DNA from: Escherichia coli | GTDB lineage: Bacteria > Pseudomonadota > Gammaproteobacteria > Enterobacterales > Enterobacteriaceae | DNA: 64,000 nucleotides | Reading direction: 5' to 3' (one strand) | NCBI RefSeq assembly: GCF_003334815.1 | Contig: NZ_QOWO01000014.1 | Part shown: piece by piece, positions 44,766 to 63,515 of the stretch | Position numbering within the stretch: the stretch's first letter is position 1 | How the letters are laid out: every line of letters begins with the position of its first letter | Notes under the pieces: generated by a model | Seen by the model: only the letters and a program-made list of their open reading frames with translations | What the model was told of the DNA's origin: nothing | Database searches by the model: none | Translations under genes and position numbers: made by a program

Positions 44766-45172
44766 CATAATATTCATTTGTTATTATTCCACCCTATCAC
44801 TTCTCTCGTCATATCCTAGTATTATCAGTTAGTTAAACACACAAAGAGATCTGAACATCTTAAATAAGACTATTTAAGATGCATAACTTAGATTCGCAAG
44901 ATATCTTCTGGTCATTCAAAAACAATTTGCGATATAGATATTCTTATACCATGAGATAGTTATCTGGACCGCTCTCAACCATGCAAGATTAAATCAGTGA
45001 AACATAATCATATTTGATAACGAGAAATGCATTTTTAAATGCCTTACTCAGAATTATAGCAAATACAGATTAATCGCAATTTTTCCCGGCAAAATTACAA
45101 AATCATGGTGTATTGACATCATCAATAACCAATGAAATTATGCAATTATATACGGATAGGGAGGTTCTTAAC

Positions 45173-45805
45173 ATGGGGCTTTGTAGTCGTTATAAAAGTC
45201 TTACATGCAATAGTTGCTCAATGCATTGCCAAATAATGCCAGAAGAGTCACCGCGTTTGCAGTATTGCGCAAACTCGTGTTTTTGTATGTGGCCCGAAGA
45301 AAGTTCATATTTTAATCGTGGTGTGGTAGAAGGTATCTTAACAAAAAACCACAATGCGAGATTAAGCGGATATATTTTTGTCGATTTTTCAGTAAGTTTT
45401 TTACGTCTATTCCTTGAAAAAGACTGGATTGACTATCTTGCAAGTACTGACATGGGGATTGTTTTAGTCAGCGACCGCAATATGCAATCGTTAGCTAATT
45501 ACTGGCGAAAACACAACTCAGCAATATCTGCTGTCATATATAATGATGATGGTCTTGATGTTGCCAATGAAAAGATCAGACAACTATTTATTGGTCGTTA
45601 TTTATCATTTACCAGAGGTAACACATTAACTCAGATGGAATTCACCATAATGGGGTATATGGTTTCTGGTTATAATCCATATCAGATTGCTGAAGTTCTG
45701 GATATGGATATCCGTAGCATCTACGCGTACAAGCAACGAATCGAAAAGAGAATGGGTGGTAAAATAAACGAATTATTTATTCGTTCACATTCGGTCCAAC
45801 ATTGA
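45173..45805 (+). CDS. yqeH: LuxR-type HTH regulator YqeH (210 aa)
   Basis: ORF 45113..45805. The ATG at 45173 is preceded by AGGGAGG. C-terminal LuxR/FixJ HTH (LTQMEFTIMGYMVSGYNPYQIAEVLDMDIRSIYAYKQRIEKRMG). Confidence 0.85.
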   Translation: MGLCSRYKSLTCNSCSMHCQIMPEESPRLQYCANSCFCMWPEESSYFNRGVVEGILTKNHNARLSGYIFVDFSVSFLRLFLEKDWIDYLASTDMGIVLVSDRNMQSLANYWRKHNSAISAVIYNDDGLDVANEKIRQLFIGRYLSFTRGNTLTQMEFTIMGYMVSGYNPYQIAEVLDMDIRSIYAYKQRIEKRMGGKINELFIRSHSVQH

Positions 45806-46138
45806 TACTCAACGACCAGCCAGAATCATACTCTGTTTATACGGGCATTTATTGAAATGTCCGTATTTTATAAATAGGCCGTCCCCTCAAGAGTAAACAC
45901 CATAGTATTTAAAACCATCACACGAAAAATTCAGAAGCATTACGAAATATGAATTTACAAACAATAGTGGCATAAATGTTAACCATGTTAATTTACGTAA
46001 AGTTTTACGTTGCAACATTAAAGCCTCATTTCAATCATCATGATAAATATAAAATTAATATATATTTATGCCGTAAATACCAATATACTTAGCAAACTAT
46101 GTGATCTCCATTTCGATTGATTTAGTGTTTATTGACGT

Positions 46139-46948
46139 ATGTACTGGATTATTAACGATAATATCGAGTTCTGGCCTGAGCACCGAAAATTAATATCGGT
46201 ACATAACGCCGATCTTAACGTCGTTCTGACAACGCCAGCCAGTCGATGTTTATCACTTCTACTTGAAGCTTTTCCTGATGTGGTTGCACAACAAGATTTT
46301 TTCACCAGAGTCTGGGAAGAAGAAGGTATGCGTGTGCCTACTAACACGTTATATCAGAACATATCCATTATCAGACGCGGATTTCGCGCTGTTGGTGATA
46401 CTACCCACTCGCTAATTGCAACCGTGCCGAGAAGAGGATTCAAGATCCATAATGACATTAACATACAAAATCATGTAATAAACTCGTCAACAGACGCACA
46501 TACACACAATGCCCCACCTGCCATAAAAGTTAATGCGGGATACAAAGAGAGCATTGGTGGCGCAAAGAATTTCAATAACAAAATCCTCAAACATATAAAA
46601 AGTCATCTAATTATGTTGAGCGCATTTGTCATAGGCGCATATTCTGCATATTGGCTATGGAATAATAATCAACCGAAGCCATTTTTCAAGGATTACAAGA
46701 CTGTTGCGGAAATTAATGGCTGCCATTTTAATGTAACAGAAGATACAATTGATGGGTTGAAAGAGTTCGATAAATATAAAACACGGATACTGGATTCGGG
46801 GATTAACTGTAAAAAACATCCGTGGTTATACTTCCCTCTTGCAAAATCCTCACCGGGGATGATTGTTATGGCATGCAATAAAAACTATAACCAACATGAA
46901 GTGGCAAACTGTTTAACCCTGTCTTACCGTGAGGTTAATCGTGATTGA
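46139..46948 (+). CDS. yqeI: ToxR/CadC-like membrane-anchored winged-helix regulator YqeI (269 aa)
   Basis: N-terminal OmpR/PhoB-type DNA-binding domain (...TLYQNISIIRRGF...VPRRGFKI), one TM segment (LIMLSAFVIGAYSAYWLW) and a roughly 100-aa extracytoplasmic tail. Confidence 0.85.
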   Translation: MYWIINDNIEFWPEHRKLISVHNADLNVVLTTPASRCLSLLLEAFPDVVAQQDFFTRVWEEEGMRVPTNTLYQNISIIRRGFRAVGDTTHSLIATVPRRGFKIHNDINIQNHVINSSTDAHTHNAPPAIKVNAGYKESIGGAKNFNNKILKHIKSHLIMLSAFVIGAYSAYWLWNNNQPKPFFKDYKTVAEINGCHFNVTEDTIDGLKEFDKYKTRILDSGINCKKHPWLYFPLAKSSPGMIVMACNKNYNQHEVANCLTLSYREVNRD

Positions 46949-47423
46949 TTATAAAAAAAACTTATTATTTATTTTAGTTTTTATCAGTGGGTTTATTCTC
47001 TTCACTGTCTATTCTTACACTGCAGAAAAAATGATATATAACGAAACATGCACTGCAAATTGGGTAATTTTTAATGACCAGGGACGAGCAAATCTTACCA
47101 TCGACTTTATGTATAACAAAAAAAATAAAACAGGAACTGTTGCGTTGAGTGGAACCTGGCAACAAGGTAACAGAGAAAGTAAATCAATACGGCGAAATAT
47201 TGAATACACATGGATTGAAAACTATGACACAGCCCATTTAACATCAAAGAAAGTTAATAAGTTTGAGATTATGGATCAAGTTGATGATGATAGACTTGCA
47301 CAACTTATTCCTGATTTTTATGTCTTTCCAGAAAAAAGTGTAAGCTATAATATACTAAAGCAAGGTAAGCATGCTTTTATTTTGAGCATTGGTAACAGAG
47401 CAATAATGCATTGTGCAAGGTAA
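46941..47423 (+). CDS. yqeJ: YqeJ, N-terminally anchored extracytoplasmic protein (160 aa, GTG start)
   Basis: ORF 46929..47423. The GTG at 46941 overlaps the yqeI stop (GTGATTGA). TM segment LLFILVFISGFILFTVYSY. Confidence 0.75.
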   Translation: MIDYKKNLLFILVFISGFILFTVYSYTAEKMIYNETCTANWVIFNDQGRANLTIDFMYNKKNKTGTVALSGTWQQGNRESKSIRRNIEYTWIENYDTAHLTSKKVNKFEIMDQVDDDRLAQLIPDFYVFPEKSVSYNILKQGKHAFILSIGNRAIMHCAR

Positions 47424-61595: not shown

Positions 61596-61714
61596 TAACT
61601 TTCATCCTTCTGATCGTTTTCGAATTTGCTTTCATTTTCTTGCTCCTCATAAGGCTGATGTCGTTGTCCTTGTCGTTCATCTTGCTCAGTCAATACCCAA
61701 CGTTGTGCTGTAAC
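61595..61714 (-). pseudogene. eivJ: 39-codon 3' remnant of the gene upstream of epaO (position of eivJ / InvJ-SctP homolog)
   Basis: The frame is open only from 61714: VTAQRWVLTEQDERQGQRHQPYEEQENESKFENDQKDES-stop. Its TAA overlaps the epaO ATG (TAATG). There is no start codon, and a stop at 61717-61715 bounds it upstream. Confidence 0.55.
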
Positions 61715-61726
61715 TCATTATGAAAA

Positions 61727-63337
61727 CTATTTAATTCCCTCATCATTGATAAGGTTGGACATCTCTTTCAACATGAGAGTCATTGAAGCTTTCGACCAAT
61801 TTAGCGGAATGATAGGGCTTGGCGCTTCATGCAAAGTTCCCGACTTGTGGATATAGTTATAGCTTTCGGGAAGTGCCATTTCTGGTACGCTCCTGCCATT
61901 TGCACCAATCATATTCTCGCCTGTTATTTGGGCCAATGATCTATTCATAAATTGTACTGAGTCATTCAAATACTCTTCTTTTCTTGATTCTTTATAAACA
62001 ATTGCTGCTGATTTTGCATACCATGAGTCAAAAAACCATTCTGCTTCTGTTGATGGAATGAAGCTCTTTTCTCTTTTTGCATGCGAATTTTGATCGGTAT
62101 CGGTTTTAATATCATTGAACCAAAAATTTGCCGACTGATAATTATCCTTCTCGTATCTTTTTATACCATACGGACCTGCTAGTTTTTTAACTATTTTTAG
62201 AACTTGCTCTTTTCTTCTGGTGTTTATCTTTGAAAGATTTGTAGGATAAATAACATTAAGTAAAGCCGCATCGGCTTCTCTGTAATGTTTATCTTTTTCC
62301 AGATAACCTGGGGATTCTCCCCCTAAATCAAGCTGTAACGTTATTCTTTCATAACCTTTATCTATGAGGTGGTTCAACCTCGTTGTTGAAAGAGTTTCAT
62401 CCAGTTCATTGACTTTAGCTTCGCGTAGTAAATCAGAGACAAAAACAGAGTCTTTCTTCGAGAGTAGGTTTGACAAACGTTCCAGTCCAGAGGTCACCAG
62501 TGCAACGGAAGATGTGTTTAATCGGGCATCTTCTTCCCATGCTCAGGAATCTTCCATAACATAGAAATTGGCTTTATCCAGATAAGCAATCAGCAGCGCA
62601 ACCGACTTTAATCGGTCACCTTTTTGCCAATCTTCAGCGTTAATAGTACCAGTGTTGATTGCTTGTATAAGGAGATCAAGGTAAAGACCTAAAGCATCAT
62701 TTTGTTTATGGTTCCACAGCTGCGGCTTGCCTTCTTCCTGCACATCTGCCATCACGGGGGAGTTGCTGTCAAATCGGATATGCACAGCATTCATTTGCAC
62801 GGGAATTCCATCCAGTCGTTTTGGGTTGCTAATGACGTCCTGCATCCGCTTAATCTGGTCGGGCGTAGACATATAATCCCACAGGGTGAGCAGAACCTTT
62901 TTTGCGGCTACACTATTTCCCTGATCTGATACTAATGCCATATAGCCCCATAAACTATCCCTCAACCAGACAGCATCATAGTGGGTTTCTGCCGCTGTTT
63001 TGTCATCTTCGAAAGTAGAAGCAAGAATAAACGTTCCCCAGGGTTTCTCCGTCAACGTTAACTTTCGTGTGTTTTCTGTTAATGTTAGCAATCCTTGAAT
63101 TTCGTCTTTGGTATAGTGGCTCTTTATTTCATTTTGTAATTTGGCTGAGTGAATCAGAAGACGATAATTAGGATACTTATCTGGATTTAACGATAAATAA
63201 CTTTTATCTGTTGCTGCCCCCGTGGAATTAAGAATGTTAAATACAGATTCACTCGTCACTTCTGCCCCTGTCGCCTGGCATGTGCCGCACGAAAATATAC
63301 CAGCGAGCAGAAGAGTTAATGCAGATTTCCCTTTCAT
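61727..63337 (-). pseudogene. ygeQ: Exported glycoside-hydrolase family 15-like (glucoamylase / phosphorylase-kinase-like) protein, ygeQ-like, with one in-frame TGA at codon 265
   Basis: ORFs 62543..63379 and 61727..62497 are in the same frame and are separated only by TGA (62545-62543). The read-through sequence is ...NFYVMEDS-stop-AWEEDARLNTSSVALVTSGLERL. GH15-type motifs WLRDS, WNHKQNDALG and WEE. N-terminal signal MKGKSALTLLLAGIFSCGTCQA. Confidence 0.75.
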
Positions 63338-63492
63338 AAAATATTCCATCAATCGTTTGTTAAAAGCGTAGATAACCACTTATTTAACAACTTGAAAATA
63401 AGGTGTTTTACCTGGGTTGTTACAAAAGGATTGCATTGCGTAAACGCTTTTTATTTACAACAAAATGGGGAAGTATTACGGCGAAGATAAAT

Positions 63493-63515
63493 TGGAGCGG
63501 GCGAAGGGAATCGAA
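63493..63515 (-). repeat. 23-nt copy of the 3' end of tRNA-Gly(CCC) glyU (att-type scar)
   Basis: TGGAGCGGGCGAAGGGAATCGAA is the reverse complement of ...TTCGATTCCCTTCGCCCGCTCCA. The match stops inside the T-arm, and no remainder of the tRNA follows. Confidence 0.75.

Follow-up and report, generated by a model that had tools for sequence, protein, structure and literature searches.

How much of a large secretion machine survives a disabling loss, and whether anything of it is still kept by selection, are the questions raised by an AT-rich block (positions 44767–63515) within a 64,000-nucleotide stretch of Escherichia coli DNA, the whole of which is referred to here as the window. An earlier reading of the sequence (the first-pass annotation) had described this block, which begins after the yqeG terminator, as ETT2, the second type III secretion system of E. 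coli, resembling the pathogenicity island 1 of Salmonella (SPI-1) and no longer able to build an injectisome. As judged from the sequence, the block is ETT2, the SPI-1-type secretion island of E. coli, in its common broken isoform of 18.7 kb, from which very probably no injectisome can be assembled. The attrition of ETT2, the 8.7-kb deletion discussed below and the phylogroup-specific patterns of pseudogenes are already published, and the present results reproduce them with nothing new in kind. Thus, the locus carries little weight as a discovery, and its value is that of a convenient natural experiment on the decay of a large machine after one disabling event.

The borders, composition and gene order of the block all agree with its assignment to ETT2. 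The G+C content falls from 0.46–0.53 at 38–43 kb to 0.31–0.41 across approximately 44.5–63.5 kb, in keeping with the low values of ETT2. A terminator-like hairpin found directly 3' of the yqeG stop codon (44713) marks the left edge, and a short copy of the 3' end of the tRNA-Gly gene glyU marks the right one; ARAGORN found no complete tRNA gene in the window, glyU being represented by its 23-nucleotide 3' fragment alone. Both flanks agree with those of annotated genomes, in which the site extends from yqeG to glyU. As the reference for an intact island we took that of strain e1-39 (NZ_AP040954.1, hereafter L002), which carries sctC, sctV, sctN, the gatekeeper gene, SpaM/sctO, eivJ and eivF, and whose ETT2 genes are annotated as intact with the exception of eivJ, which is in two pieces, and of a ‘frameshifted’ flag on epaO; a second undeleted annotated island was that of strain E597 (NZ_CP049197.1). 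The 25 retained genes of the block are colinear with L002, where they have full-length counterparts at 91–99% nucleotide identity; for the RefSeq-annotated islands at this site taken together, identity per gene is 92–99%. When the block was compared by megablast with 5,426 complete E. coli genomes, it was found in 5,399 of them and covered over at least 80% of its length in 3,015, with no exact contiguous match to the block among the 5,426. The nearest loci are 99.9–100% identical (for the locus L001, 99.9% over 21.7 kb), and the RefSeq labels on matching loci are those of ETT2 genes (YgeH, PrgH/EprH, and EscU-, YscQ- and SctT-family proteins). Taken together, the drop in G+C content, the hairpin, the synteny and the sequence identity uphold the description of an AT-rich, SPI-1-like ETT2 block after the yqeG terminator. 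ETT2 has been reported to be present in most E. coli strains and widely degraded, to be absent from phylogroup B2, and to be intact in enteroaggregative E. coli (EAEC) 042 and in sequence type 69 (PMC7058095).

The SPI-1-like label was also found to be apt at the level of the single components. The profile matches to PrgH, OrgA_MxiK and InvH, together with those to SctQ, SctR, SctS and SctT above cut-off (table 1), place the system in the Inv-Mxi-Spa (SPI-1 type) family, and the best matches of EpaP, EprH and EprI among solved structures in the PDB are Salmonella SPI-1 SpaP (6e-91), PrgH (1e-53) and PrgI (2e-29), followed by Shigella proteins. With the Inv/Spa/Prg system of Salmonella SPI-1 and the Mxi/Spa system of Shigella the block shares PrgH/EprH, OrgA_MxiK, InvH, IagB-like, HilA-like and SicA-like parts. 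Unlike these systems, the window is without the genes for the secretin, SctV, SctN, SctO, SctW and the InvF-like protein, and those for SctU and SctK are broken.

Most of these losses fall in one place. The alignment with complete ETT2 clusters that had been recommended in the first-pass annotation shows the block to be colinear with L002 with one stretch of 8,730 bp lacking: window 41767–48129 and 48121–61719 align to L002 1–6363 and 6591–20200, and window 61714–63484 to L002 28931–30701, leaving L002 20201–28930 without a counterpart. The pentanucleotide TCATT is found at both ends of the 8,730-bp stretch in L002 and once in the window, and the deletion is thus one at a short direct repeat. 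The deleted stretch holds the 5' two-thirds of eivJ (sctP), eivI (sctO), eivC (sctN), eivA (sctV), eivE (sctW), eivG (sctC), eivF and a small GhoT/OrtT-like toxin gene. When the L002 proteins were used in tblastn searches, none of sctC, sctV, sctN, sctO, sctW and eivF was detected anywhere in the 64-kb window, nor was any other injectisome gene outside ETT2, so that the reported absence of secretin, export gate, ATPase, stalk and gatekeeper genes is confirmed with the proteins of an intact island. A single deletion between the two TCATT copies has removed the secretin, export gate, ATPase, stalk, gatekeeper and InvF-like activator along with the greater part of the needle-length regulator. Tip, translocator and effector genes, also listed as missing in the first-pass annotation, are indeed lacking in the island, but they are equally absent from both undeleted islands annotated, and their absence is for this reason no part of the decay. 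In this respect ETT2 differs from SPI-1, no sip/sic translocator or effector operon being annotated in the two undeleted islands examined; translocator homologues have been described at a separate eip locus near selC (PMC7058095), a site beyond the 64 kb of the window.

The deletion is a known one. The eivJICAEGF segment has been reported to lie between small direct repeats and to be often deleted, with pseudogene patterns that follow phylogroup (PMC5422975); an 8.74-kb deletion isoform is listed in a 2024 review (PMC11068852), and an isoform with an approximately 8.7-kb eivJ–eivF deletion is attributed to Ren et al. 2004 as cited in PMC7058095. The window agrees with the approximately 8.7-kb isoform in site (yqeG to glyU), gene order and deleted genes; its private features are a 2-bp deletion in orgA and an IS10-like insertion sequence (IS) element beside the partial glyU copy, with otherwise no substantial difference. 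A 200-bp probe centred on the junction was contiguous in 1,939 of the 5,426 complete genomes (36%), whereas at least 80% of the deleted segment was kept in 972 (18%). Some 36% of the complete genomes thus carry the same deletion allele, and the backgrounds on which it is found went on to break different genes. In the single-nucleotide polymorphism haplotypes around the junction, compared with a single or a recurrent origin of the deletion in mind, the sites at which both deleted lineages agree against the undeleted L005 (strain ACN001) proved to be private to L005.

Besides the large deletion, small lesions were located against the reference reading frames of the intact island, and 11 loci were compared gene by gene. 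Independent small mutations have broken the export switch epaS (sctU), the sorting-platform protein gene orgA (sctK), the regulator gene ygeK, ygeF, the end of pbl and, at the flank, the glycoside hydrolase family 15 (GH15) gene. In EpaS the split lies 21 residues upstream of the NPTH autocleavage motif. The pbl frameshift replaces the last approximately 20 residues and leaves the SLT domain almost complete, and pbl is no clean case of a retained gene. The orgA gene carries a 1-bp deletion near 54127 that brings a stop at codon 21; near 53673, in a GAGAGA run, it has a further deletion of 2 bp. Thus, of the statement that at least four genes (ygeK, the orgA-like gene, epaS and the ygeQ-like gene) carry single lesions, the breakage of all four is confirmed, but orgA has two lesions, and the frameshifts in ygeF and pbl come in addition to the four. 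Overall, set against the conserved core of a functional injectisome (SctC, D, J, F, I, V, R, S, T, U, N, Q, K, L, O and P), SctC, SctV, SctN, SctO and SctW are gone, SctP is a stub of 39 codons, and SctU and SctK are frameshifted; the lost core genes and the broken sctU and sctK support the conclusion that an injectisome can no longer be built.

The lesions were also considered as possible errors of sequencing or assembly, in which case some or all of the retained genes would really be intact. The private 2-bp deletion of orgA, within its GAGAGA repeat, would fit such an explanation, as none of the 5,426 complete genomes has it: the two extra bases are present in every one of the 1,094 matches to a 61-bp probe. 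This deletion is either private to the strain or an error, and in both cases without functional effect because the shared 1-bp deletion already inactivates orgA. Every other lesion recurs in independently sequenced genomes, which makes an origin of the decay in sequencing errors very unlikely and dismisses the objection raised in the first-pass annotation itself. In particular, the lesions of pbl, ygeK and epaS, as well as a ygeF frameshift at the site affected in the window, are no sequencing errors, being common to independent assemblies: they were found in 8 of the 11 loci, namely all eight A/B1-type loci.

The distribution of the lesions across the 11 loci gives an indication of their order. 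The eight A/B1-type loci include L005, in which the large deletion is another one and part of the eiv segment is retained, and the simplest order would have the four shared lesions (pbl, ygeK, epaS and ygeF) older than, and independent of, the large deletions, an ordering that recombination could blur. The 1-bp deletion in orgA is shared by the window and L001, and the GH15 stop by the window, L001 and K-12. A sister lineage (L003, L009, L004 and L008) has the identical junction with orgA and GH15 intact and carries instead lesions in orgB, eprJ, eprI, etrA and epaO, joined in sub-lineages by lesions in eprK, epaP, eprH and orgA. This matrix supports a stepwise and lineage-specific decay on top of one large loss, so that the proposal of ‘stepwise decay, not one clean loss’ holds for the small lesions, but not for the core machinery, which went in one clean deletion of 8,730 bp. 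The window resembles published phylogroup A strains in having intact eprI, eprJ, orgB and epaO: eprJI, orgB and epaO have been described as pseudogenes in one phylogroup and as intact in A and E strains (PMC5422975).

The K-12 remnant (yqeH to ygeQ) is 99.9–100% identical to the window over 43267–53996 and 62201–63515 and also carries the window's ygeF, pbl, ygeK and GH15 lesions. It differs in that an IS2 replaces window 53997–62200, from the 5' part of orgA up to and including the ygeP half of GH15, and in that orgB has a 1-bp deletion. The state of the window looks like that of the K-12 island prior to its IS2-associated loss. At the other extreme, the undeleted ETT2 islands of the EAEC 042 type (e1-39 and E597) have none of the window's point lesions and differ further by the presence of the 8.73-kb eivJ–eivF segment with the GhoT/OrtT-like gene, and by 228 bp more between yqeK and ygeF.

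Whether the genes that escaped these lesions are still under selection was examined with the ten apparatus genes found unbroken in the window (eprH, eprI, eprJ, eprK, orgB, epaO, epaP, epaQ, epaR and the invH-like gene, approximately 6 kb). The pairwise ratio of non-synonymous to synonymous divergence (dN/dS) was 0.12 for the undeleted pair L002 and L010, 0.13 for the window and L002, and 0.20 for the window and L003. Pairwise values among the lineages that share the deletion (the window against L003 and L004) were considered as a test of selection after the deletion and rejected because the divergence is mosaic, with 0 synonymous differences in eprH, and epaP and epaQ nearly as diverged as they are from the intact reference; the pairwise signal thus largely predates the deletion or was imported by recombination. 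When changes were polarised by parsimony, the branch specific to the window was found to carry 5 synonymous and 9 non-synonymous changes, few events that yield a ratio of non-synonymous to synonymous changes (pN/pS) of 0.46, as opposed to 0.11 on the deeper branch common to all A/B1-type loci. The value of 0.46 is not distinguishable from neutral (binomial p = 0.18) and is marginally above the constrained baselines (Fisher p = 0.03–0.05; 0.03 versus the 0.12 of the intact islands). Thus, the estimate of dN/dS suggested in the first-pass annotation gave, for these ten genes, no sign of continuing purifying selection in a test that has low power on the window-branch counts.

By taking into account these results, the present state of the island may be described as follows. 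The ten apparatus genes, the chaperone gene ygeG and the regulator genes yqeH, yqeI, ygeH and etrA remain intact. The apparatus genes are most likely leftovers decaying at a near-neutral rate, and they are probably silenced by H-NS, as suggested by what has been published for other strains: the ETT2 operons of strain 042 are activated by YgeH, and H-NS represses ygeH and ETT2 there (PMC4210603). Any remaining activity would most plausibly come from transcription factors acting on genes elsewhere. The left-hand regulator genes (yqeH, yqeI and ygeH), ygeG and ygeI are intact almost everywhere, which fits the published evidence that the regulators, and not the apparatus, still affect physiology. 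Across the 11 loci, yqeH, yqeI, ygeG, ygeI and epaQ are never broken, and ygeH is broken once, by an IS2 insertion in L005.

Two observations weigh against the view of the apparatus genes as mere leftovers. In the window lineage some 6 kb of apparatus genes have escaped any disruptive lesion, which some selection could explain; roughly 2 lesions would be expected under neutrality and 0 were found, a difference that is not significant. Furthermore, deletion of a degenerate ETT2 in an avian septicaemic strain is described, in PMC6030553 and PMC3977695, citing Ideses 2005, as having altered serum resistance and virulence, so that an ETT2 remnant is not necessarily inert. The remnant could be imagined to be under selection for a needle-free role, its intact subunits of inner ring, rod, needle and export gate forming a partial envelope structure or altering the surface with consequences on serum resistance, motility or vesicles. 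The integrity of all ten apparatus genes in both the window and L001 agrees with such a role, and so do the published whole-ETT2 deletions, one of them of a degenerate island, that alter surface properties and serum resistance (PMC6030553; PMC3977695), as well as the serum sensitivity of an eprHIJK mutant, as reported in a review (PMC11068852). Whole-island deletions have been found to alter motility, surface properties and serum resistance with no effector identified, and their authors propose a needle-independent role (PMC6030553). However, five or six regulators were lost together with the whole islands in these published deletions, and their loss alone may be sufficient for the phenotypes. 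Moreover, in the sister lineage, which has the identical deletion, five to nine of the same genes carry frameshifts or stops, which makes the apparatus genes dispensable in many successful lineages; K-12 is entirely without window 53997–62200, and the pN/pS of 0.46 on the window branch is to be set against the 0.12 of the intact islands. A needle-free role under selection is, thus, unlikely. The more specific proposal that, in the phylogroup-A-type lineage, selection keeps the ten apparatus genes for a partial basal body or for subunits that, devoid of secretin and ATPase, would have a needle-independent role in the envelope (in one version with the split EpaS working as two polypeptides) is quite unlikely.

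A working machine might also be obtained if another type III system in the cell, such as the locus of enterocyte effacement, the flagellar system or Flag-2, supplied the missing parts. Nothing in the window speaks for it, the idea drawing solely on the homology that type III systems share in general. It would take seven core components from elsewhere, sctU and sctK are broken within the island itself, and the 64 kb are free of any other injectisome gene. SctC, SctV and SctN are not known to stand in for their counterparts across distant injectisome families. We regard such an external supply as barely conceivable, and near-neutral decay of the apparatus genes beside intact regulators is the reading that we prefer.

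Table 1. Position, strand and state of the features of the ETT2 block and its borders (window coordinates).
Feature	Position	Strand	Observations
Terminator-like hairpin	44724..44758	+	stem of 16 pairs, then a T run; left border of the AT-rich island
yqeH, LuxR-type regulator	45173..45805	+	intact; GerE; intact in 11 of 11 loci
yqeI, winged-helix (OmpR/ToxR-type) regulator	46139..46948	+	intact; Trans_reg_C; intact in 11 of 11 loci
yqeJ	46941..47423	+	intact; no Pfam or NCBIfam match
yqeK	47572..47997	-	intact in the window; broken in L001, L004 and L008
ygeF	48191..48680	+	pseudogene; 2 bp deleted at an A-run near 48589; premature stop 48635–48637
ygeG, SicA-like TPR class II chaperone	48905..49396	+	intact; TPR_3, 3e-23
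ygeH, HilA-family regulator	49731..51107	+	intact; Trans_reg_C plus TPR; RefSeq name
ygeI, small protein	51275..51493	+	intact; gene-by-gene comparison
pbl, IagB-like lytic transglycosylase	51576..52078	+	1-bp deletion near 52013
ygeK (etrB), LuxR-type regulator	52097..52729	-	pseudogene; CAA to TAA at codon 52 (52574–52576)
orgB, SctL-like	52951..53658	-	intact; OrgB model 1.4e-14, under the curated cut-off
orgA, SctK	53600..54178	-	pseudogene; OrgA_MxiK 8e-23; two frameshifts
eprK, SctJ inner-membrane ring lipoprotein	54194..54928	-	intact; YscJ/FliF, 3e-12
eprJ, SctI inner rod	54925..55257	-	intact; SctI, 4e-26
eprI, SctF needle subunit	55277..55516	-	intact; needle protein 1e-24; 100% amino-acid identity to the intact reference
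eprH, SctD inner-membrane ring	55530..56711	-	intact, 393 residues; PrgH, 3e-75
etrA, LuxR-type regulator	56968..57468	+	intact; profile match and comparison of loci
InvH-like lipoprotein (secretin pilotin family)	57470..57763	+	intact; InvH, 5e-31
epaS, SctU	57825..58945	-	pseudogene; 1-bp deletion near 58241; stop 58214–58216; FlhB/YscU family, in two pieces
epaR, SctT	58954..59721	-	intact; NCBIfam SctT, above cut-off
epaQ, SctS	59723..59983	-	intact; NCBIfam SctS, above cut-off
epaP, SctR	59993..60658	-	intact; NCBIfam SctR, above cut-off
epaO, SctQ	60648..61595	-	intact, 315 residues; SctQ equivalog NF006018, 3e-147, 489 bits
eivJ remnant, SctP needle-length regulator	61595..61719	-	last 39 codons; tblastn and RefSeq annotation
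Deletion junction	61714..61719		5-bp repeat TCATT
GH15 gene, ygeP-like and ygeQ halves	61727..63337	-	GGA to TGA at codon 265 (62543–62545)
glyU (tRNA-Gly) 3' end, 23-nucleotide copy	63493..63515	-	right edge of ETT2

As to gene content, every gene named in the first-pass annotation was found by Pfam or NCBIfam profiles, but the list had missed etrA, the InvH-like gene, yqeH, yqeI, yqeJ, yqeK and ygeI. The epaO gene, flagged by RefSeq as ‘frameshifted’ (60648–61635), was considered as a further lesion and rejected: residues 2–315 match positions 3–303 of the 303 of the NF006018 model end to end, and the flag is also found on the undeleted islands. From the sequences, the flag is probably an annotation artefact that arises from the use of the N-terminally extended 328-residue O157 protein as the model.

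A few minor features of the retained genes may be added. The InvH-like pilotin gene is intact in the window and in 9 of the 11 loci, most of which have nevertheless lost the secretin gene, its presumed partner. The two halves of epaS are a 243-residue membrane part and an open reading frame of 130 residues with a TTG start, which holds the whole of the cleaved C-terminal domain; the position of the split near the autocleavage site is probably a coincidence. In orgB, a 1-bp deletion in an A7 run (reference nucleotide 267) is found in K-12 and in the B1-type loci, but not in the window or L001, although these two are in other respects the nearest to K-12; slippage that recurs at the run, reversion or recombination is thereby suggested. 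In the spacer between yqeK and ygeF (approximately 48121–48129) the window has 228 bp fewer than the undeleted islands, and in L002 a 9-bp direct repeat, AAGGTGATA, stands on either side of the stretch in question (6364–6591). A short repeat is thus the site of this second deletion too. The spacing of the genes suggests that the 228-bp deletion is common to all A/B1-type loci.

Beyond position 63515 the window departs from the K-12 arrangement. The segment 63516–63842 is AT-rich, contains two copies of TAATCTTTAATTGTGTCTTTAA (at 63743 and 63791) and is matched partially, at 94.7%, in other genomes, several of them at a similar chromosomal coordinate, and from 63843 onward the end of an IS10-like ISVsa5 element is found. 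The arrangement 63493–64000 was contiguous in 0 of the 5,426 complete genomes and has the look of the border of a further insertion associated with glyU, which the insertion sequence has disrupted. At the opposite end, window 1–25000 is ordinary core chromosome with recC, ptrA, recB, recD, argA and the genes around them, and its identity to K-12-type genomes is 100%; in K-12 strains the match is in two pieces and spans approximately 110 bp more, and the many short repeated matches per genome given by this region are probably due to elements of the repetitive extragenic palindromic (REP) type.

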